Shown here one piece after another: positions 26,928 to 64,000 of a DNA stretch of 64,000 nt (its first letter is position 1; each line of letters starts with the position of its first letter). The translations under genes and the position numbers were made by a program. The stretch comes from Escherichia phage APCEc01. The DNA is taken from the sequence record NC_029091.1; one strand, given 5' to 3'. The notes beneath the pieces are model-generated. The model saw nothing but the letters and a program-made list of their open reading frames with translations, was not told the origin of the DNA and made no database searches.

Positions 26928-26933
26928 GGTTAT

Positions 26934-27296
26934 ATGAAAGCATATCAAATTCTTGAAGGCACACACAAAGGCACTATTTATTTTGAAGACGGTACTCAAG
27001 CCCGGATTATTGTCTCTAAGACTTTTAAAGAAGACGCTATTGTAGACCCGGAAATTTTCTACGGTTTGCATGCCCGTGAAATTGAAATTGAACATCACCC
27101 TAAAGTTAAAATTGAAGGTGGTCAACATCTGAACGTTAACGTTCTGCGTCGTGAAACTCTAGAAGATGCAGTTAAGCATCCAGAAAAATATCCGCAGCTG
27201 ACCATCCGTGTATCTGGTTATGCAGTTCGCTTTAACTCTCTGACTCCGGAACAGCAGCGCGACGTTATCGCTCGCACCTTTACTGAGAGTCTATAA
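26934..27296 (+). CDS. autonomous glycyl-radical cofactor (GrcA/YfiD-like)
   Basis: 120 aa; C-terminal [20 protein letters not shown] carries the glycyl-radical fingerprint RVSGYAV. Confidence 0.75.
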
Positions 27297-42318: not shown

Positions 42319-42792
42319 ATGTTATTATCAGGCGCAAAATATAAAGAAGAAAAACAAAAATTTTATGATGCACAGAACGGTAAGTGTCCTATTTGCCACC
42401 GTGAATTAGACCCTGATGTTCAAGGTAACCATCTTGACCACGACCACGAATTAAACGGGCCAAAAGCCGGTAGAGTTCGTGGATTACTCTGTAATCTGTG
42501 CAACGCAGCAGAAGGCCAAATGAAGCATAAGTTCAATCGTTCCGGTCTTAAAGGACGTGATGTTGACTACCTCGAATGGCTTGAAGCTCTTCTTGCTTAT
42601 TTGAAACAAGATTATTCTGATAATAATATCCATCCTAATTTTGTTCCAGACAAAACTAAAGAGTTCTCAAGACTAGGTAAAGAGGAAATGATGGCTGAGA
42701 TGCTTCAAAGAGGATTTGAATATAATGAATCTGACACCAAAACACAGTTAATAGCTTCATTTAAGAAGCAGCTTAGAAAGAGTTTAAAATGA
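42319..42792 (+). CDS. 49: endonuclease VII (Holliday junction resolvase) gp49
   Basis: 157 aa, MLLSGAKYKEEKQKFYDAQNGKCPICHREL...HLDHDHELNGPKAG..., close to T4 gp49. Confidence 0.93.
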   Translation: MLLSGAKYKEEKQKFYDAQNGKCPICHRELDPDVQGNHLDHDHELNGPKAGRVRGLLCNLCNAAEGQMKHKFNRSGLKGRDVDYLEWLEALLAYLKQDYSDNNIHPNFVPDKTKEFSRLGKEEMMAEMLQRGFEYNESDTKTQLIASFKKQLRKSLK

Positions 42793-44606
42793 CAATTGAA
42801 AAAGAAATTGAAGGATTGATTCATAAAACTAATAAAGACCTTTTAAACGAGAATGCTAATAAAGATTCTCGTGTTTTTCCAACTCAACGGGACCTTATGG
42901 CTGGTATTGTGTCTAAACACATTGCCAAAAATATGGTCCCGTCTTTTATTATGAAAGCACATGAAAGCGGAATTATCCATTTCCACGATATTGATTATTC
43001 CCCTGCTCTTCCGTTTACTAATTGCTGTTTAGTCGATTTAAAGGGGATGCTTGAGAACGGATTTAAATTAGGCAATGCTCAAATTGAAACGCCTAAATCT
43101 ATTGGCGTTGCTACTGCAATTATGGCACAAATTACTGCACAAGTTGCTTCCCATCAATACGGCGGAACGACTTTTGCTAATGTAGATAAAGTACTTTCTC
43201 CTTATGTTAAACGCACCTATGCAAAACATATTGAGGATGCAGAAAAATGGCAAATCGCTGATGCGTTAAATTATGCTCAATCTAAAACAGAAAAAGACGT
43301 ATACGATGCATTCCAAGCTTATGAATATGAAGTAAATACTCTCTTTAGTTCAAACGGACAAACGCCTTTTGTAACAATTACATTTGGTACGGGAACTGAC
43401 TGGACTGAACGAATGATTCAGAAAGCAATTCTGAAAAATCGTATTAAAGGTCTTGGTCGTGATGGGATAACTCCTATTTTTCCTAAACTTGTTATGTTCG
43501 TTGAAGAAGGTGTTAATCTTTATAAAGACGATCCGAACTATGATATTAAGCAGCTTGCGTTAGAATGTGCAAGCAAAAGAATGTATCCTGACATTATTTC
43601 GGTTAAGAATAATAAAGCTATCACCGGCTCATCTATTCCTGTTTCTCCAATGGGTTGTCGTAGTTTCTTGAGTGCATGGAAAGATTCAACTGGAAATGAA
43701 ATTCTTGACGGTCGTAATAATCTTGGCGTTGTAACACTGAATCTTCCTCGTATAGCATTAGATTCTTATATTGGAACACAGTTCAATGAACAGAAATTTG
43801 TTGAGCTATTTAACGAACGAATGGACCTGTGTTTTGAAGCCTTGATGTGTAGAATTAGTTCCTTAAAAGGAGTTAAAGCGACTGTTGCTCCTATTCTTTA
43901 CCAAGAAGGTGCATTCGGGGTTCGTCTTAAACCTGATGACGACATAATTGAGTTATTTAAAAACGGTAGAAGTTCAGTGTCTTTAGGATACATTGGTATT
44001 CACGAATTGAATATTCTTGTCGGTCGTGATATTGGGCAAGAAATTTTAACTAAAATGAATGCTCATCTTAAACAGTGGTCCGAAAGAACTGGATTTGCTT
44101 TTAGTTTGTATTCTACTCCTGCTGAAAACCTTTGTTACAGCTTCTGTAAACTTGATACAGAAAAATATGGAAGTGTAAAGGATGTTACTGATAAAGGTTG
44201 GTACACTAATAGTTTCCATGTTTCAGTAGAAGAAAATATTACTCCGTTTGAAAAGATTTCTCGTGAAGCGCCATATCATTTCATAGCGACAGGTGGTCAC
44301 ATTTCTTATGTTGAACTTCCAGATATGAAAAACAATTTAAAGGGACTTGAGGCCGTCTGGGATTATGCTGCACAACATTTAGATTATTTTGGTGTTAATA
44401 TGCCAGTGGATAAATGTTTTACATGTGGAAGTACCCATGAAATGACTCCTACTGAAAACGGATTTGTTTGTTCTATTTGTGGAGAAACTGATCCTAAAAA
44501 GATGAACACAATAAGAAGAACATGTGGTTATTTGGGAAATCCGAACGAACGCGGATTTAATCTCGGTAAAAATAAAGAAATCATGCATAGGGTTAAACAC
44601 CAATGA
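42789..44606 (+). CDS. nrdD: anaerobic ribonucleoside-triphosphate reductase NrdD
   Basis: 605-aa uninterrupted ORF (same length as T4 NrdD); C-terminal glycyl-radical motif RRTCGYLG. Confidence 0.93.
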   Translation: MTIEKEIEGLIHKTNKDLLNENANKDSRVFPTQRDLMAGIVSKHIAKNMVPSFIMKAHESGIIHFHDIDYSPALPFTNCCLVDLKGMLENGFKLGNAQIETPKSIGVATAIMAQITAQVASHQYGGTTFANVDKVLSPYVKRTYAKHIEDAEKWQIADALNYAQSKTEKDVYDAFQAYEYEVNTLFSSNGQTPFVTITFGTGTDWTERMIQKAILKNRIKGLGRDGITPIFPKLVMFVEEGVNLYKDDPNYDIKQLALECASKRMYPDIISVKNNKAITGSSIPVSPMGCRSFLSAWKDSTGNEILDGRNNLGVVTLNLPRIALDSYIGTQFNEQKFVELFNERMDLCFEALMCRISSLKGVKATVAPILYQEGAFGVRLKPDDDIIELFKNGRSSVSLGYIGIHELNILVGRDIGQEILTKMNAHLKQWSERTGFAFSLYSTPAENLCYSFCKLDTEKYGSVKDVTDKGWYTNSFHVSVEENITPFEKISREAPYHFIATGGHISYVELPDMKNNLKGLEAVWDYAAQHLDYFGVNMPVDKCFTCGSTHEMTPTENGFVCSICGETDPKKMNTIRRTCGYLGNPNERGFNLGKNKEIMHRVKHQ

Positions 44607-45073
44607 ATTATGATAGATTTTATCCTTGCGATTTTGTGAATGGCCCTGGATGCAGGGTCGTTCTTTTCGTTACGGGTTGTTTGCATAAATGCGAAGGGTG
44701 TTATAATAAATCAACATGGAATGCTAGAAATGGTGTTCCATTCACTGGTGAAACACTAGAACAATTAATTGAATGTTTGAATAATGATTATATAGAAGGA
44801 TTAACTATAACCGGAGGTGACCCTCTCTATCCTGATAACCGAGATGTTATTCATTGCATTGCTCAAACAGTAAAAAATCTTTATCCCAATAAAAGCATTT
44901 GGTTGTGGACAGGATATAAGTTTGAAGATATTAAACAACTAGAAATGCTTAAATATGTTGATGTTATTATTGATGGGAAGTATGAGAAAAATCTTCCGAC
45001 TAAAAAGCTGTGGCGAGGATCAGATAATCAGCGACTTTGGTCAAATACCGATGGGGTGTGGAAACATGATTAA
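44603..45073 (+). CDS. nrdG: anaerobic RNR activating enzyme NrdG (radical SAM)
   Basis: 156 aa with CLHKCEGC cluster motif; start overlaps nrdD stop. Confidence 0.9.
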   Translation: MNYDRFYPCDFVNGPGCRVVLFVTGCLHKCEGCYNKSTWNARNGVPFTGETLEQLIECLNNDYIEGLTITGGDPLYPDNRDVIHCIAQTVKNLYPNKSIWLWTGYKFEDIKQLEMLKYVDVIIDGKYEKNLPTKKLWRGSDNQRLWSNTDGVWKHD

Positions 45074-56698: not shown

Positions 56699-59410
56699 AT
56701 GAAAGAATTTTACTTAACGGTTGAACAGATTGGTGATTCAATTTTTGAACGTTACATCGATTCTAATGGCCGTGAACGTACTCGTGAAGTAGAATATAAA
56801 CCATCACTGTTTGCTCATTGTCCAGAAAGTCAGGCTACGAAATATTTCGATATCTACGGTAAGCCGTGTACTCGTAAGTTGTTCGCTAATATGCGTGATG
56901 CCTCCCAATGGATTAAACGCATGGAAGATATCGGACTTGAAGCACTTGGCATGGACGATTTCAAATTGGCGTATTTGTCTGACACTTATAACTATGAAAT
57001 CAAATACGACCATACAAAAATTCGTGTGGCTAACTTCGACATCGAAGTAACATCTCCGGACGGGTTCCCTGAGCCGTCACAAGCAAAACATCCGATTGAT
57101 GCTATCACCCATTATGACTCAATTGACGACAGGTTCTACGTATTTGATCTATTGAATTCTCCATATGGTAATGTAGAAGAATGGTCTATTGAAATCGCTG
57201 CTAAGCTTCAAGAACAAGGCGGTGATGAAGTTCCATCTGAAATTATCGATAAAATCATTTATATGCCGTTCGATAACGAAAAAGAATTGTTGATGGAATA
57301 TCTCAACTTCTGGCAACAGAAAACTCCTGTCATTTTGACTGGATGGAACGTTGAGTCATTTGATATTCCATATGTGTATAACCGAATCAAGAATATTTTT
57401 GGCGAATCTACTGCGAAACGTTTATCGCCACATCGTAAAACTCGTGTTAAAGTTATCGAAAACATGTATGGTTCTCGTGAAATCATTACATTGTTCGGTA
57501 TCTCTGTTCTTGATTACATTGGCCTTTACAAAAAATTCTCTTTTACCAATCAACCGTCGTATTCTCTGGATTACATTTCAGAATTTGAATTGAACGTTGG
57601 TAAACTGAAATATGACGGCCCTATTTCTAAGCTTCGTGAAAGCAATCACCAACGATATATTTCTTATAACATTATCGACGTGTATCGTGTATTGCAAATT
57701 GATGCTAAGCGTCAGTTCATCAACTTGAGCTTGGACATGGGTTATTATGCTAAGATACAGATTCAATCTGTGTTTAGCCCAATTAAAACATGGGATGCTA
57801 TTATTTTTAATAGCCTTAAAGAGCAGAACAAGGTGATTCCACAAGGTCGTTCTCACCCGGTTCAACCTTATCCCGGCGCTTTTGTTAAGGAACCTATTCC
57901 AAATCGATACAAATATGTAATGAGTTTCGACCTTACATCTCTGTATCCAAGTATTATTCGCCAAGTGAATATTAGCCCGGAAACAATAGCAGGAACGTTT
58001 AAAGTAGCTCCATTGCATGATTATATTAACGCAATCGCTGAACGTCCTTCAGATGTGTACAGTTGCTCTCCTAACGGCATGATGTATTATAAAGACCGTG
58101 ATGGTGTAGTTCCAACTGAAATCACTAAGGTCTTTAATCAACGTAAAGAACATAAAGGTTACATGCTTGCAGCTCAACGTAATGGTGAAATAATTAAAGA
58201 GGCATTGCATAATCCTAATCTTTCTGTTGACGAACCATTAGATGTTGATTATCGTTTCGACTTCAGTGATGAGATTAAAGAAAAGATTAAAAAGTTGTCT
58301 GCTAAATCTCTTAATGAAATGTTGTTTAGAGCTCAACGTACTGAAGTTGCAGGTATGACCGCACAAATTAACCGTAAATTGCTTATCAACTCACTTTATG
58401 GTGCACTTGGCAACGTTTGGTTCCGTTATTATGATTTGCGTAATGCTACTGCAATCACAACATTCGGGCAAATGGCTTTACAGTGGATTGAACGTAAAGT
58501 TAATGAATATCTGAATGAAGTTTGTGGTACAGAAGGTGAAGCTTTCGTTCTATATGGTGATACAGACTCTATTTACGTATCTGCTGATAAAATTATCGAT
58601 AAGGTTGGTGAATCTAAATTCCGTGATACCAACCATTGGGTAGACTTCTTAGATAAGTTTGCACGTGAACGTATGGAACCTGCTATTGATAGAGGTTTCC
58701 GTGAAATGTGTGAATACATGAACAATAAACAACACTTAATGTTCATGGACCGAGAAGCTATCGCTGGTCCTCCGCTCGGTTCTAAAGGTATTGGTGGATT
58801 CTGGACTGGTAAGAAACGTTATGCATTAAACGTGTGGGATATGGAAGGAACCAGATACGCTGAGCCTAAACTCAAAATCATGGGTCTAGAGACTCAGAAA
58901 TCTTCGACCCCTAAAGCAGTACAGAAAGCTCTTAAAGAATGTATTCGTCGTATGCTTCAAGAAGGTGAAGAATCATTACAAGAATATTTTAAAGAGTTTG
59001 AAAAAGAATTCCGTCAATTGAATTATATTAGCATCGCGTCGGTATCTTCTGCGAATAACATTGCTAAATACGACGTAGGTGGATTCCCGGGTCCTAAATG
59101 CCCGTTCCATATTCGTGGAATTCTGACATATAACCGAGCTATCAAAGGTAATATTGATGCACCACAAGTTGTAGAAGGTGAAAAAGTATATGTTCTGCCT
59201 TTACGTGAAGGAAACCCATTCGGTGATAAATGTATCGCATGGCCTTCTGGTACTGAAATCACAGATTTAATTAAAGACGATGTACTTCATTGGATGGACT
59301 ACACTGTTCTCCTTGAGAAGACATTTATTAAACCACTTGAAGGATTCACATCAGCAGCTAAACTCGATTACGAGAAGAAAGCATCTCTGTTCGATATGTT
59401 TGATTTTTGA
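56699..59410 (+). CDS. 43: DNA polymerase gp43 (family B, RB69-type)
   Basis: 903 aa; MKEFYLTVEQIGDSIFERYIDSNGRERTREVEYKPSLFAHCPESQATKYFDIYGKPCTRKLF..., exo motif FDIEV, pol motifs DLTSLYPS and YGDTDS, C-terminal SLFDMFDF. Confidence 0.97.
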   Translation: MKEFYLTVEQIGDSIFERYIDSNGRERTREVEYKPSLFAHCPESQATKYFDIYGKPCTRKLFANMRDASQWIKRMEDIGLEALGMDDFKLAYLSDTYNYEIKYDHTKIRVANFDIEVTSPDGFPEPSQAKHPIDAITHYDSIDDRFYVFDLLNSPYGNVEEWSIEIAAKLQEQGGDEVPSEIIDKIIYMPFDNEKELLMEYLNFWQQKTPVILTGWNVESFDIPYVYNRIKNIFGESTAKRLSPHRKTRVKVIENMYGSREIITLFGISVLDYIGLYKKFSFTNQPSYSLDYISEFELNVGKLKYDGPISKLRESNHQRYISYNIIDVYRVLQIDAKRQFINLSLDMGYYAKIQIQSVFSPIKTWDAIIFNSLKEQNKVIPQGRSHPVQPYPGAFVKEPIPNRYKYVMSFDLTSLYPSIIRQVNISPETIAGTFKVAPLHDYINAIAERPSDVYSCSPNGMMYYKDRDGVVPTEITKVFNQRKEHKGYMLAAQRNGEIIKEALHNPNLSVDEPLDVDYRFDFSDEIKEKIKKLSAKSLNEMLFRAQRTEVAGMTAQINRKLLINSLYGALGNVWFRYYDLRNATAITTFGQMALQWIERKVNEYLNEVCGTEGEAFVLYGDTDSIYVSADKIIDKVGESKFRDTNHWVDFLDKFARERMEPAIDRGFREMCEYMNNKQHLMFMDREAIAGPPLGSKGIGGFWTGKKRYALNVWDMEGTRYAEPKLKIMGLETQKSSTPKAVQKALKECIRRMLQEGEESLQEYFKEFEKEFRQLNYISIASVSSANNIAKYDVGGFPGPKCPFHIRGILTYNRAIKGNIDAPQVVEGEKVYVLPLREGNPFGDKCIAWPSGTEITDLIKDDVLHWMDYTVLLEKTFIKPLEGFTSAAKLDYEKKASLFDMFDF

Positions 59411-59450
59411 TATAATGCCAAGGACGGCCAACTAATTAAATGAGAGAAAT

Positions 59451-60086
59451 ATGAAAACTACTCCTATTACTATCGCTATTGACGCAATCGTAAAACAAGC
59501 TTCATCTCTTGCCACTATGGCTAAAGTAATTAGTCAAAACCCTGCTCGTTATAATGCTATTCTAGAAACTCTTCGACGCCCTGGACTTAGTAATTATGAA
59601 AGCCGGGTAATTATTACAGGTGTTGGTAAGAATGCTAATATCGCAACTAAAGCTTCCGAGACTTTTGCTTCACTAGGTATTCCTAGCATGTATTTGAACA
59701 CCGGGCATTATTCTCATGGTGACGCAGGATTTATTGCGCCTAATGACGTGTTGATTCATATTAGTCGTTCTGGTAAAACTGAAGAAATGATAGGTGTTGC
59801 TAAACATCTTCGTATGATTCGTCCTCAGGTTAAACAGATTCTGTTACATTGTAACCCAGACATTCCACAAGAATACGAAGCTCTTTTTGATTATACGTTC
59901 TGTACCGGTATCGCGGTAGAAGTTGACGAGAACTCTTTAGCTCCGACTATGTCCACTACATTGTTGTTAGCGCTTATCGATACGTTTGCTATCAACCTTT
60001 CGTCTGAACGTGGATTTACCTCTAATGATTTCCTTAAGTTCCATCCAGGCGGTGCACTAGGTGCCATGTTACGAGGCGAACAATGA
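59451..60086 (+). CDS. D-arabinose-5-phosphate isomerase, SIS domain only (KdsD/GutQ-like, no CBS domains)
   Basis: 211 aa; VIITGVGKNANIATKASETFASLGIPSMYLNTGHYSHGDAGFIAPNDVLIHISRSGKTEE and LAPTMSTTLLLALIDTFAINLSSERGFTSNDFLKFHPGGALG parallel the KdsD SIS domain. Confidence 0.8.
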   Translation: MKTTPITIAIDAIVKQASSLATMAKVISQNPARYNAILETLRRPGLSNYESRVIITGVGKNANIATKASETFASLGIPSMYLNTGHYSHGDAGFIAPNDVLIHISRSGKTEEMIGVAKHLRMIRPQVKQILLHCNPDIPQEYEALFDYTFCTGIAVEVDENSLAPTMSTTLLLALIDTFAINLSSERGFTSNDFLKFHPGGALGAMLRGEQ

Positions 60087-60226
60087 AAGCAATAACAATA
60101 GGACTTTTACTATTGATGCTTGTCATGACTATCTACTGGAGCTTAACGGCTCCGGTAATGATTCCAACACTTGTAATTGGATGGATTATGATTGGACTAC
60201 AAGCAAAGTATGAATGCTTTAACTAG
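60083..60226 (+). CDS. small two-helix membrane peptide
   Basis: 47-aa ORF (MKAITIGLLLLMLVMTIYWSLTAPVMIPTLVIGWIMIGLQAKYECFN); start overlaps isomerase stop (ATGA); below the ORF-track length cut-off. Confidence 0.35.
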   Translation: MKAITIGLLLLMLVMTIYWSLTAPVMIPTLVIGWIMIGLQAKYECFN

Positions 60227-60267
60227 AATAGTGTACAATACTCCTACTTACCAATGAGGACTTCAAC

Positions 60268-61953
60268 ATGAAAAAAGCTGTTATTCTTGGTGCTGGACTG
60301 GCAACTCGTTTGTATCCAATAACGCATCATATTCCTAAGGTGCTTGTTAATTATAAACAAGACACTATTCTGAGCAATTTGTATACAATTTATTCTGACC
60401 TTGGCGCAGATGAAATTATTGTAGTAGTTCATTCAAAATTTGCTGAAACTGTTCGAGCTTATTGTGAGCAAGAAGGGTTCAATGTGACTATTCGTACAGT
60501 TGATGAAGCGTATGGTTCTGCTTATGCTCTTGCTAAATTACACAAAGATTTAGACGGCCATAATGTAATTGTTAACTGGTGTGATATTATTCCTGATTTT
60601 GGTTCATGGTCTTGGAATGTTAACGCAATCTATGTTAAGGGTGACGAATGTCGATATAATTTCGACGGTGAAAATATCACTAACGTAGGTTCAACAGGTG
60701 GTAATGTTGTAGGAATTTATCAGTTCAAAGACTGGGAATTCTATATGGGTTCTACCGATGAGGAAATTCATGAATACTGCAAAGGACGTGATTTCGTAGA
60801 ATTCCTTTACGGCAGCGCATTCAATAAATCAGAGCTTATGAATATAATTGATTTAGGTGATATGCCTAAACTTGAAAAGGCTCATGAAGTTCGTGAACTT
60901 AATCGTAGTTTTAATGCAGTTGAAATTGGTGAAGAAACTGTAACTAAATTCGCATTAACCGAACAGGGTCGAGCTCTTCAGAAAGATGAGATTTCGTGGT
61001 ATTTGAAAGTGAAATCAGATTCAGTTCCTCAGTTAGTTTCTGTTAATGAAAATAACTTTGAAATGGAACGCATTAAAGGTAAGCCAGCATTTGAATATAT
61101 TAAATCCAAATCAAGTCTTGCTCGTCCACAAATTGTTGATGCAATTTTAGATGCACTGAAATTCAGCACAGACACTTATTTTGTAAGTCCTGAAACTGTT
61201 CGTCGTGATTTCACTAAAGAATTCTATACGAAAGTTATTGATCGTTGTGAAAGCATTCAACCGTTGATTGATTCATTTGGTAAAATCACACATGTGAACT
61301 ACACTAAGATTGGACGTCTGAAGCCAATGCTGAAACAAGCTTTAGAACACCTTATTCGGTATCATAACCGTTCTCAGGGACAGTACTCTGTTATTCACGG
61401 TGACCCGAACTTCAGTAATACTATGATTACTGATAACGGCGAAGTCAAGTTTATCGACCCTCGTGGATATTTTGGCGAAACCAAGATTTACGGGCCAAAA
61501 TTGTATGATGAAGCTAAAGTGCTTTATGCTGTTTCAGGTTATGATGAATTCAATGCTAATCCGACCTGGGGGCAGTTTACTATTGATGAAACAACTTGTA
61601 ATGTGACTATTAACATCAATCCATTAGTTTACAAATATGGAAAGATGAGTTCGTTTAACGAGTATCATCATTTGGCAGTGGCAATTATCTGGATTGCATT
61701 AGGTGGTTATTTCAAGAATAATCCACTTAAAGCGGTAGCCGCATATTATAAAGGTATGGAACTTCTGACTAAGCAATTACGTAACATGGGCCGTGTACTT
61801 CAGGACGGCTCTATTAGTTATGACGTAGCAGAACCTGTAACGGCTACTCTGATTACAAAAAATCCTGGTAAATGGGTACTAACTGATAAAGAAACTGGTG
61901 TTTCCTATCGTCCAATCGGTGGCGATATCACTCATCAATGGGAACGAATCTAA
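60268..61953 (+). CDS. bifunctional sugar-1-phosphate nucleotidyltransferase / sugar kinase
   Basis: 561 aa; N-terminal MKKAVILGAGLATRLYPIT is the RmlA/GalU/LicC-type G-x-G-T-R-L motif; C-terminal part has kinase motifs HGDPNFSNTMI and FIDPRGYFG (APH/choline-kinase fold). Confidence 0.75.
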   Translation: MKKAVILGAGLATRLYPITHHIPKVLVNYKQDTILSNLYTIYSDLGADEIIVVVHSKFAETVRAYCEQEGFNVTIRTVDEAYGSAYALAKLHKDLDGHNVIVNWCDIIPDFGSWSWNVNAIYVKGDECRYNFDGENITNVGSTGGNVVGIYQFKDWEFYMGSTDEEIHEYCKGRDFVEFLYGSAFNKSELMNIIDLGDMPKLEKAHEVRELNRSFNAVEIGEETVTKFALTEQGRALQKDEISWYLKVKSDSVPQLVSVNENNFEMERIKGKPAFEYIKSKSSLARPQIVDAILDALKFSTDTYFVSPETVRRDFTKEFYTKVIDRCESIQPLIDSFGKITHVNYTKIGRLKPMLKQALEHLIRYHNRSQGQYSVIHGDPNFSNTMITDNGEVKFIDPRGYFGETKIYGPKLYDEAKVLYAVSGYDEFNANPTWGQFTIDETTCNVTININPLVYKYGKMSSFNEYHHLAVAIIWIALGGYFKNNPLKAVAAYYKGMELLTKQLRNMGRVLQDGSISYDVAEPVTATLITKNPGKWVLTDKETGVSYRPIGGDITHQWERI

Positions 61954-62339
61954 TGCACCGTGTAGAAAACATGCTTAATCTTTGTTTTGATGTCGATGAT
62001 TGTATAACAGAGTGGAATAACAATCGTGATTACGTGAACTTCAAACCTGACGTCGAAATGGTGTCTGCCATTAATGCCCTGTATGATGCAGGGCATACCA
62101 TAACGCTTTACACTGCTCGCGGTATGAAGTCAGTAGGTCCTGGTCGTATAGCAATTGACATTCTCCCAAGTCTTATTCAGAACTTGGCAAACATTGGCTT
62201 GAAGTACCATAATTTGCTAACACATAAACCAGTATATGATTGGATTATCGACGACAAAGCTATGCGTCCTGACGAATTCAAAGCTCTTATGAATAAAGGC
62301 GAATTCGAAACATTTAAATCATATAAACCGAATCTATAA
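61953..62339 (+). CDS. small HAD-superfamily phosphatase
   Basis: 128-aa product from ATG overlapping the upstream stop (TAATG); HAD motifs FDVDDCIT, TLYTARG, K, WIIDDK. Confidence 0.7.
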   Translation: MHRVENMLNLCFDVDDCITEWNNNRDYVNFKPDVEMVSAINALYDAGHTITLYTARGMKSVGPGRIAIDILPSLIQNLANIGLKYHNLLTHKPVYDWIIDDKAMRPDEFKALMNKGEFETFKSYKPNL

Positions 62340-62399
62340 TAATTTAAGTAAGACCTGCAAAAAAAAACCATCGCATCAATTAACGCGAGATGCAAAAAA

Positions 62400-63560
62400 A
62401 TGAATACTTTTAAAATCGGAACGAATTTTGATTTAGCTCTTCTTGATAAAATCGTAGAGCTCAATAAAACTTATCCTAATAGCTTGATAAATGAAGTATA
62501 CGGCTCTACAAGAGAAATGGCTTTTGTAGCAGCCAGACCTGATTTTAGGCTTCCTGACGTTGACAAAAAGATGTTAGAAGATTACGTTAAACGTTGTAAC
62601 GAATTAGGTATTTGCTTTAACTATACACTCAACACGATAAATCCTGGTTCAAAAAGAGAACTAGTTGAGTGGAAGAAGAAAGCTATTCAGGATTATGTTC
62701 AGTATCTTTGGTCAATAGGCGTATGGCGTATTACTATCGCTAACCCTGTTGTTATGGAAATTGTTCGTGAAGTCAATAAAGACATTGAGATTGAAGTTTC
62801 AACAATTCTACATGTCGATGCTGTAACTCAAATCAAATACTTGCATGACCAATATAATATCAAAAAGGTCTGCTGTGGAATTCATAAGAACCGTTCAGTT
62901 TCTTTCCTGAAGCGTGCAGCAGAGTTTTGCAATAAGAACAATATAATATTTGAAGTTCTTGTAAATGAGTTCTGTTCTAATGCTGGTAAAGGGTATACAA
63001 CACATTGTAGCTATCGTGACTCTTGCTATATTTTCCATAGTACTGATGTTACAGCTGATGATGCTAAATCCTTAAACGGATATCCTATGCAGCACTGTAT
63101 TAAAGCTCGTGATACAGACCCATTTAACTGGTTGAGAACTCGTTTTGTTCGTCCTCAAGATTTGAAACTTTATAATGATATTGGTATCACTCAATTCAAA
63201 GTTTCAGGACGTACAGGTAGCACAGACTACATTTTGAAAGTTCTTGAAGCATACGCTTCTGAAAAGTTTGAAGGTAATTTGTTAGAACTGTGGAAGCCTT
63301 TAGAGACTATTTTCACTCTTGAAAACGAAACTGAGTTTTCACATACAGTAAATATTGAAACCTCTTTGTTAGATGGCTTTTTAGAAAAAAGGTGGTTCAG
63401 ACATCCAGATTTCGATTGTGCTAATGAAATCTGCGGGACGACGTGTACATATTGTGAAAGATATTATAAACGTCAATTATCTAAAAACGGGTTAGCAGAA
63501 AACTCTATATCTATTATTGATATAACTAACTCTGATGACGCTTTGAGGTACCCGGAATGA
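62400..63560 (+). CDS. peptidase U32 family protein (Fe-S, RlhA/TrhP/UbiU-like)
   Basis: 386 aa; ANPVVMEIVREVNKDIEIEVSTILHVDAVTQIKYLH...IIFEVLVNEFCSNAGKGYTTHCSYRDSCY parallels the U32 core; extra C-terminal CANEICGTTCTYC cluster; assignment from memory, not HMM-verified. Confidence 0.5.
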   Translation: MNTFKIGTNFDLALLDKIVELNKTYPNSLINEVYGSTREMAFVAARPDFRLPDVDKKMLEDYVKRCNELGICFNYTLNTINPGSKRELVEWKKKAIQDYVQYLWSIGVWRITIANPVVMEIVREVNKDIEIEVSTILHVDAVTQIKYLHDQYNIKKVCCGIHKNRSVSFLKRAAEFCNKNNIIFEVLVNEFCSNAGKGYTTHCSYRDSCYIFHSTDVTADDAKSLNGYPMQHCIKARDTDPFNWLRTRFVRPQDLKLYNDIGITQFKVSGRTGSTDYILKVLEAYASEKFEGNLLELWKPLETIFTLENETEFSHTVNIETSLLDGFLEKRWFRHPDFDCANEICGTTCTYCERYYKRQLSKNGLAENSISIIDITNSDDALRYPE

Positions 63561-63796
63561 TTTCTAGAAAAACTTTTAACCACCAACTTAATGAAGAGAT
63601 TTTGACTATGAAACTGAACACTAATGAACAAATTCTTAAAAAGGCCCATCAGGGCCTTTTTGAAACTAAAGCGGCTAAAGTGATTAAAGAACCTGTTCAA
63701 TTAGAATACTACGCTGATGCATTTCTTCATAGTGTTCTTGGAAGTATCGATGCCGAAGCTTTACGTTATATCAATATTGCCAAGAAATTCAAATAA
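63557..63796 (+). CDS. hypothetical protein
   Basis: 79-aa ORF, start overlaps upstream stop. Confidence 0.5.
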   Translation: MISRKTFNHQLNEEILTMKLNTNEQILKKAHQGLFETKAAKVIKEPVQLEYYADAFLHSVLGSIDAEALRYINIAKKFK

Positions 63797-63820
63797 GCTT
63801 TACGAATTGAGTATATAATA
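63794..63820 (+). promoter_or_regulatory. MotA-dependent middle promoter candidate
   Basis: TAAGCTTTA box ending 63802, 11 nt, TATAAT at 63814-63819. Confidence 0.5.
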
Positions 63821-63837
63821 ATTGTATTGAGGTAAAC

Positions 63838-64000
63838 ATGGGAAAACATAACACAATGAAATATATCAAAGCCGCAGATTTTCAAACCGCATTTAAAGCA
63901 GTCAATCGTGAAATTTTAGAAAACCCGGAATTCGTAACTGATTCTCGTATTGGACGTTGTAATGAAATTGGGTCTATGACAGTAGTTGTTGACACTCCAT
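63838..64000 (+). CDS. 42: dCMP hydroxymethylase (gene 42-like), 5' part only
   Basis: Partial ORF MGKHNTMKYIKAADFQTAFKAVNREILENPEFVTDSRIGRCNEIGSMTVVVDTP; EFVTD...IG...VVVDTP loosely parallels T4 gp42 DFVVDKTGVKTIEIIGASFVADEP; runs off window. Confidence 0.5.
   Translation, partial: MGKHNTMKYIKAADFQTAFKAVNREILENPEFVTDSRIGRCNEIGSMTVVVDTP

Follow-up and report, generated by a model that had tools for sequence, protein, structure and literature searches.

A divergent U32-family protein encoded beside the 5-hydroxy-dCMP synthase of RB69-group phages as candidate oxygen-independent cytosine hydroxylase

The analyzed stretch of Escherichia phage APCEc01 (NC_029091.1; 64,000 nucleotides, hereafter the window) derives from a T4-like phage of the RB69 group (Mosigvirus). 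Downstream of gp44/gp62/regA/gp43 it carries a tightly packed cluster with all genes on the plus strand, the region 59400-63900 sharing 99.1% identity with Shigella phage JK42 and at least 98% with about 150 other records. The cluster comprises the following genes:

59451..60086, plus strand: arabinose-5-phosphate isomerase, RB69 gp55-like, by homology
60268..61953, plus strand: nucleotidyltransferase/kinase fusion of UDP-arabinofuranose synthesis, AfhE, RB69 gp52:53-like, by homology
61938..62339, plus strand: HAD phosphatase, AfhF, RB69 gp51-like, arabinose-1,5-bisphosphate 5-phosphatase, by homology
62400..63560, plus strand: divergent U32-family protein, RB69p050 orthologue, from its ORF, Pfam PF01136, a U32 TIM-barrel model and cysteine sites
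63557..63796, plus strand: 79-aa helical protein, RB69 ORF049c family, phrog_8601
63838..64000, plus strand: ThyA-homolog 5-hydroxy-dCMP synthase, RB69 gp48 orthologue, its 5' 54 codons before the window ends, matching the HY126 protein

Between the isomerase and AfhE genes lies a small plus-strand ORF of 50 aa with a GTG start (60061-60213); many related phages hold an ORF of 46-51 aa at the equivalent spot, where HY126 has a 144-nt gene annotated. The U32 gene is preceded by a gap of 60 nt (62340-62399) containing an A9 run, a hairpin with a 7-bp stem (62371-62388) and an A7 run abutting the ATG, and no clear Shine-Dalgarno sequence was seen in this gap. Scanning the cluster for promoters and terminators returned nothing above chance, a TTTAAA-16-TATAAT arrangement at 62313-62340 included.

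The DNA of RB69 contains mono- and di-arabinosylated 5-hydroxycytosine and not arabinosyl-hmC (Lee et al., NAR 2026, PMC13326640). Its precursor 5-hydroxy-dCMP is made by the ThyA homolog gp48, which binds FMN and incorporates 18O from O2; since the oxygen comes from O2, a synthase of this type cannot act in anoxia. RB69 gp48 and a dNMP kinase alone place 5hodC in E. coli DNA aerobically, so that U32 appears dispensable in air. The same work describes derivatised 5hoC, fully replacing cytosine, as the sole non-canonical base reported for T4-like phages, tri-arabinosylated 5hoC in Acinetobacter phages, and base modification before replication as the phage paradigm (Lee et al., PMC13326640). It is the identity of the base as 5-hydroxycytosine and of the adjacent ThyA homolog as an O2-dependent hydroxylase that makes the U32 gene interpretable. 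The original prediction had placed the gene in a nucleotide-modification setting with sugar-activation genes, which is upheld by the isomerase, AfhE and HAD phosphatase genes upstream, whereas the neighbor it took for a dCMP hydroxymethylase is instead this FMN- and O2-dependent synthase (Lee et al., PMC13326640).

The U32 gene itself has received little attention. Lee et al. mention RB69p050 once (Table 1, "sugar or heterocycle reductase") without discussing it, and name the RNA pyrimidine-hydroxylation pathways without a tie to gp50 (PMC13326640). GenBank labels range from peptidase and collagenase to "putative enzyme involved in UDP-arabinose biosynthesis", and elsewhere the gene is called a peptidase homolog. 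In a literature search outside of which some recent pathway papers fell, no link of U32 or prephenate with phage 5hoC was found, and a phage Tn-seq preprint held no essentiality data for the U32 gene.

The encoded protein of 386 aa is 99.5% identical to RB69p050 and matches Pfam Peptidase_U32 (PF01136) over residues 94-286 with 42.2 bits (gathering threshold 22.4, E=7.3e-11), the Entb_45 orthologue reaching 43.6 bits. Structure prediction yielded a U32 TIM barrel with Mk0906 (PDB 5D88) as top structural match, to our knowledge the sole U32 structure solved; searching the PDB by sequence gave no match. Profile score and fold both bear out the U32 membership first proposed from inspection by eye. 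Among the four E. coli U32 proteins, the profile match was strongest for RlhA (hhalign 81.5%, E=1.2e-5), spanning the barrel alone (54-285 of the phage profile, 46-258 of RlhA). At 386 aa, compared with about 650 aa including C-terminal domains, and with no match to the NCBIfam RlhA model, the protein does not qualify as an RlhA equivalog; the UbiU equivalog NF047963 scored 18.5 bits against a cut-off of 440 bits. Judged by these equivalog scores and by its differing motif spacing, the phage protein is inside the U32 superfamily but outside every characterised subfamily. The clade is divergent: out of 1.84 billion representative proteins, no more than 1702 matched its profile at E<=1e-3 (481 at E<=1e-30), so that mainstream U32 proteins were not retrieved. 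At 50% identity the family counts about 500-1100 clusters. Within the gene cluster, U32 shows the highest cross-genus identity (81-88%, compared with 41-73% for AfhE, the glycosyltransferase and the Tmk-like kinase).

RlhA, TrhP and UbiU/V are tied to O2-independent hydroxylation requiring Fe-S clusters and prephenate (PNAS 2024), in agreement with the oxygen-independent chemistry that had been attributed to characterised members beforehand. Prephenate has been demonstrated as oxygen donor for ubiquinone, and no U32 hydroxylase has so far been reconstituted in vitro (PNAS 2024). The known functions of TrhP and RlhA, forming ho5U34 in tRNA and ho5C2501 in 23S rRNA, would suggest that the phage protein acts on host RNA to tune translation in infection. 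We regard this as very improbable, as E. coli already encodes both enzymes, the phage protein lacks their C-terminal domains, and its gene always lies within DNA-modification or deoxynucleotide clusters.

Alignment of 65 family members revealed ten invariant cysteines, eight of them still conserved among 126 more distant representatives and falling into two groups of four. Site 1 comprises C192, C203, C209 and C233, with C192, the clade's own fourth cysteine, lying within an invariant N-E-F-C. Relative to the four U32 proteins of E. coli, C203, C209 and C233 stand in register with the U32 4Fe-4S ligand cysteines, aligning with C169/C176/C193 of UbiU, C169/C176/C192 of RlhA and C170/C177/C193 of TrhP, all needed for function there (PNAS 2024). 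The phage spacing C192-x10-C203-x5-C209-x23-C233 departs from the canonical C-x6-C-x15-C-x3/4-C, the canonical fourth position (C196 in RlhA, C197 in TrhP) is R237 in the phage protein, as in UbiU, and the PROSITE signature E-x-F-x2-G-[SA]-[LIVM]-C is not matched, an insertion following E190-F191. Site 2 is formed by C340, C345, C349 and C352 near the C-terminus, confirming the additional C-terminal C-x4-C-x3-C-x2-C noted earlier, and takes the form C-x(3-4)-C-x(2-3)-C-x2-C across the family; RlhA likewise needs two C-terminal cysteines, C580 and C611. Together, the two conserved four-cysteine sites suggest Fe-S binding by the phage protein.

A reading of Site 2 as radical-SAM CxxxCxxC, into which C345-x3-C349-x2-C352 would fit, was rejected: the spacing varies in the family (3-2-2, 4-3-2, 3-3-2, 4-2-2) while the fourth cysteine is constant, and because of both the site is unlike a radical-SAM site. 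The Pfam Radical_SAM domain gave no match in the protein. A true peptidase function of the collagenase type, for which nothing but the historical family name and the GenBank labels speaks, is hardly credible in view of characterised members being hydroxylation factors, of the eight conserved cysteines in two four-cysteine sites, and of a genomic context unrelated to proteolysis.

The stop codon of U32 overlaps the start of the 79-aa ORF (ATGA), coupling the two translationally. The Cys-free 79-aa protein shares a conserved motif N-H-x-L-N-E ... Y-Y-x-D-A-F-x-H-S and is found in Mosigvirus, Tegunavirus, Pectobacterium PM2 and Serratia 92A1, at times together with a chorismate mutase; the HY126 record has the ORF split by a frameshift. 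A single-sequence AF2 model depicts a helical hairpin at low confidence (pLDDT 71). A diverged chorismate mutase was considered and dismissed, there being no Pfam or NCBIfam match even at E<=10, a BLASTP E of 6.8 and an hhalign probability of 0.2%; moreover, a true mutase coexists in Yersinia TG1 and Serratia 92A1. The protein may be a U32 accessory factor.

Enterobacter phage Entb_45 encodes, between U32 and its ThyA homolog, a chorismate mutase that scores past the cut-off of Pfam CM_2 (E=2.4e-10). By tblastn this mutase appeared in 56 phage records, each time at this same location (non-Mosigvirus U32 records, n=68), and an HMM scan found it in 13 of 15 T4-like IMG/VR lineages; it is absent from the Mosigvirus of the window and from one Klebsiella-phage lineage. 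The phage mutases retain six of the eight EcCM active-site residues (R11, R28, K39, E52, S84, Q88). In the Shewanella phage Thanatos the cluster is rearranged, with the order AfhE, HAD, ThyA homolog, glycosyltransferase, Tmk, U32, chorismate mutase; as the adjacency of the last two survives this rearrangement, U32 and the mutase seem to move as a pair.

Wider phage relatives of about 360 aa and 40-58% identity are encoded by viral contigs from metagenomes, the largest reaching 466 kb. Their neighborhoods were surveyed in 38 non-T4 loci with flanks of ±7-8 kb, hosts of the contigs being deduced from MAG binning. A type-I-beta DAHP synthase adjoins U32 in seven of these loci, five of the seven synthases being fused to a chorismate mutase domain:

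L057, 8079-9197: DAHP synthase gene beside U32
L046, 5321-6376: DAHP synthase gene beside U32
L043, 5411-6433 (also in L044 and L047): DAHP synthase gene beside U32
L006, 9145-9891: DAHP synthase gene beside U32
L032, 8080-8826: DAHP synthase gene beside U32

The fused mutase domain is C-terminal, and the metagenomic contigs partly represent jumbo phages. A reading of these neighbors as KDO-8-P synthases, within a KDO pathway of KdsC-like HAD and arabinose-5-phosphate isomerase, is unlikely, as they score 149-216 bits to DAHP synthase versus 52-63 to KDO8P synthase, and five of them bear the chorismate mutase domain. Phage DAHP synthase genes would drive carbon into the shikimate pathway toward prephenate. 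The adjacency of U32 to chorismate mutase and to DAHP synthase-mutase fusions in two unrelated phage groups points indirectly to the use of prephenate by the phage U32 protein.

The further neighbors of U32 in the 38 loci were Tmk-like kinase (18 loci), AfhE (17), KdsC-like HAD (15) and arabinose-5-phosphate isomerase (10), and an RB69 gp46:47-like glycosyltransferase in 17, often directly upstream and overlapping the U32 start. The resulting Tmk-glycosyltransferase-U32 triad parallels the ThyA homolog-glycosyltransferase-Tmk triad of T4-like phages, and at least eight loci show it with neither AfhE nor isomerase nearby. A ThyA homolog was present within ±7 kb in a single locus, with canonical dUMP-type residues. 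In the metagenomic phages linked to anaerobes, U32 would thus take the place of the ThyA-type synthase in the cluster. In one metagenomic U32 cluster, the gene next to the glycosyltransferase (L034:2509-3360) encodes a thymidylate synthase of canonical appearance (RSGD...FN) that bears an odd LVAAAGAGG insertion and could be a dUMP-modifying enzyme.

These linkages bear on a role of U32 in the sugar branch, where arabinose, or the nucleotide carrying it, would be its substrate. Such a role is suggested by the position of the gene between the HAD phosphatase and the remaining cluster, by the annotations in GenBank and Table 1 of Lee et al. (PMC13326640), and by the co-occurrence with AfhE and the isomerase in many phages. 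Yet AfhE and AfhF suffice for UDP-arabinofuranose synthesis from arabinose-5-phosphate in HY126, in the account of that work cited by Lee et al. (PMC13326640), Acinetobacter phages form their tri-arabinosylated base without U32, the triads lacking both sugar genes argue likewise, and the links to chorismate mutase and DAHP synthase would be left unexplained. We consider this role quite improbable; sugar and host RNA are both unlikely as substrates.

Other contexts of U32 include dCMP deaminase, dNK, NT5C and nucleoside deoxyribosyltransferase genes. Among 100,044 reference genomes the family was found just eight times, all belonging to obligate-anaerobe lineages (Erysipelotrichales, Bacillota, Lachnospiraceae, two Romboutsia, Tannerella, Phocaeicola faecalis and a groundwater BRC1 MAG). 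A cassette with the order GP88 (PF17338), guanylate-kinase-like and SAM-methyltransferase fusion (about 430 aa), protein of about 265 aa, and U32 is present in Phocaeicola, Tannerella, BRC1 and Bacillota genomes or MAGs:

L071, 2996-7077: GP88-to-U32 cassette
L070, 3872-7077: GP88-to-U32 cassette
L069, 3810-7068: GP88-to-U32 cassette
L004, 5135-9098 (also in L066): GP88-to-U32 cassette

The cassette may constitute a hydroxylate-then-methylate nucleotide modification system. Downstream of it, L004 encodes NT5C, an NMN transporter, dNK, a radical SAM/SPASM protein, a second U32-like protein and a nucleoside deoxyribosyltransferase.

Since some relatives lie near dCMP deaminase and UDG-like genes or beside the bacterial kinase-methyltransferase fusion, the U32 family may have several substrates. 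The phage protein could accordingly be imagined to hydroxylate another nucleotide or position, e.g., dUMP to 5-hydroxy-dUMP, yielding a minor or condition-specific modification unseen in aerobic RB69. This is distinctly unlikely, considering the complete replacement of cytosine by derivatised 5hoC as the only non-canonical base reported for T4-like phages and the tight block of U32, chorismate mutase and ThyA homolog, which suggests a shared product. A hydroxylation of cytosines already within DNA, topping up or repairing unmodified positions after replication, would be in line with the characterised nucleic-acid U32 enzymes working on polymers, with RlhA as top profile match and with the frequent adjacency to a DNA glycosyltransferase. 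We hold it to be rather unlikely: U32 is repeatedly linked with Tmk-like kinases, dCMP deaminase, dNK, NT5C and guanylate-kinase fusions, its model shows only a barrel of about 360 aa, in which no domain for binding nucleic acids can be recognised, and the known phage modifications of this kind precede replication.

The distribution of U32 was then compared with oxygen lifestyle. All 220 GenBank phage carriers of U32 infect Enterobacterales or Shewanella. Acinetobacter is a strict aerobe. The arabinose gene AfhE occurs in 57 Acinetobacter phage records, and in the cluster of the Acinetobacter phage DLP1 the HAD gene is directly followed by the ThyA homolog, with neither U32 nor chorismate mutase. 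Acinetobacter phages were also absent among the matches listed in an NrdD search, although expected to rank high enough. JS10, a Dhakavirus of E. coli (L010), has the order AfhE, HAD, Tmk, ThyA homolog, glycosyltransferase, without U32 or an arabinose-5-phosphate isomerase of its own; because E. coli Dhakaviruses lack U32, the rule of host lifestyle is not absolute. The window contains these further genes:

26928-27293, plus strand: GrcA/YfiD-like autonomous glycyl-radical protein of 121 aa
42789..45073, plus strand: anaerobic ribonucleotide reductase NrdD (42789-44606) and its activase NrdG (44603-45073)

With NrdD and NrdG the phage is therefore equipped for anoxic DNA synthesis, and together with the GrcA-like protein it has several dedicated anaerobic or oxygen-stress functions.

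The data directly show family and fold, two conserved four-cysteine sites, the linkages of the gene and its phyletic distribution; from these we infer Fe-S binding, the use of prephenate, the substrate and the anaerobic role. With a probability of roughly 55%, the phage U32 protein would be an O2-independent, prephenate-dependent C5-hydroxylase of cytosine, dCMP being the most likely substrate, and thereby the anaerobic counterpart of the ThyA-type synthase. It would hydroxylate C5 without O2, the oxygen atom deriving from prephenate, as is thought for RlhA, TrhP and UbiU/V, and stand in for the adjacent FMN/O2-dependent 5-hydroxy-dCMP synthase under anoxia, so that arabinosyl-5-hydroxycytosine would go on replacing cytosine while E. 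coli grows anoxically, e.g., in the gut. Because Mosigvirus has no phage chorismate mutase, its prephenate would be supplied by PheA/TyrA of the host. Counting against the proposed hydroxylase are the missing mutase in Mosigvirus and one Klebsiella-phage lineage, the missing U32 in the E. coli Dhakaviruses, the departure from the canonical cysteine spacing and PROSITE signature with a displaced fourth ligand, and the sufficiency of RB69 gp48 and dNMP kinase in air. The initial suggestion was broad, allowing for bases as well as sugars, and for phage DNA as well as host RNA, as targets of hydroxylation; it would narrow to cytosine C5 at the dCMP or DNA level.

Several known systems can be set beside the proposed hydroxylase. 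RlhA (YdcP), the 5-hydroxycytidine synthase of 23S rRNA C2501, shares family and barrel and would share the chemistry on an identical atom, cytosine C5; it depends on Fe-S and prephenate and needs C-terminal cysteines besides those of the U32 motif, and the phage protein also has C-terminal cysteines. In contrast, RlhA, at 653 aa, possesses large C-terminal domains and has rRNA as its substrate, whereas the 386-aa phage protein ends in a compact C-x4-C-x3-C-x2-C tail, has a core spacing of C-x10-C-x5-C-x23-C with the fourth ligand provided by NEFC, and occurs in a context of deoxynucleotides and DNA modification. The E. coli pairs TrhP/TrhO and UbiU-UbiV/UbiI,H,F follow the same logic of an O2-dependent and a U32 enzyme yielding one product; unlike these, the phage pair would sit adjacent in a virus, its product would be a DNA precursor, and its O2-dependent partner is a thymidylate-synthase homolog. 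With the ThyA-type synthases (RB69 gp48, DLP3 gp80, HY126) U32 would share the product 5hodCMP, besides the cluster and the partnering Tmk-like kinase and arabinosyltransferase, but the two have no homology, FMN and O2 being used there, while Fe-S and prephenate are proposed for U32.

We see about an even chance that no U32 hydroxylase was known before this one from a virus, or with a DNA precursor as substrate. Phages of facultative anaerobes would then have two non-homologous 5-hydroxy-dCMP synthases adjacent to each other, a flavin/O2 enzyme with the thymidylate-synthase fold and an Fe-S/prephenate enzyme with the U32 fold, the latter often accompanied by a chorismate mutase of the phage; phages linked to obligate anaerobes would have the U32 route only, in some cases with DAHP synthase-chorismate mutase fusions, and phages of strict aerobes the flavin route only. 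If this is true, it would account for complete DNA modification of RB69-type phages in the anoxic gut, even though the known hydroxylase fails there, and it would bear on how fit therapeutic Mosigvirus, Klebsiella and Serratia phages are in vivo. The labels "peptidase", "collagenase" and "UDP-arabinose biosynthesis enzyme" carried by this gene in databases would be corrected, and the soluble substrate dCMP would offer the first tractable in vitro assay for prephenate-dependent U32 hydroxylation. Furthermore, the U32 family would mark hydroxy-pyrimidine DNA modification in uncultured anaerobe-linked phages, and prephenate-dependent hydroxylation, so far a matter of RNA and quinones in cells, would come to include DNA precursors and viruses.
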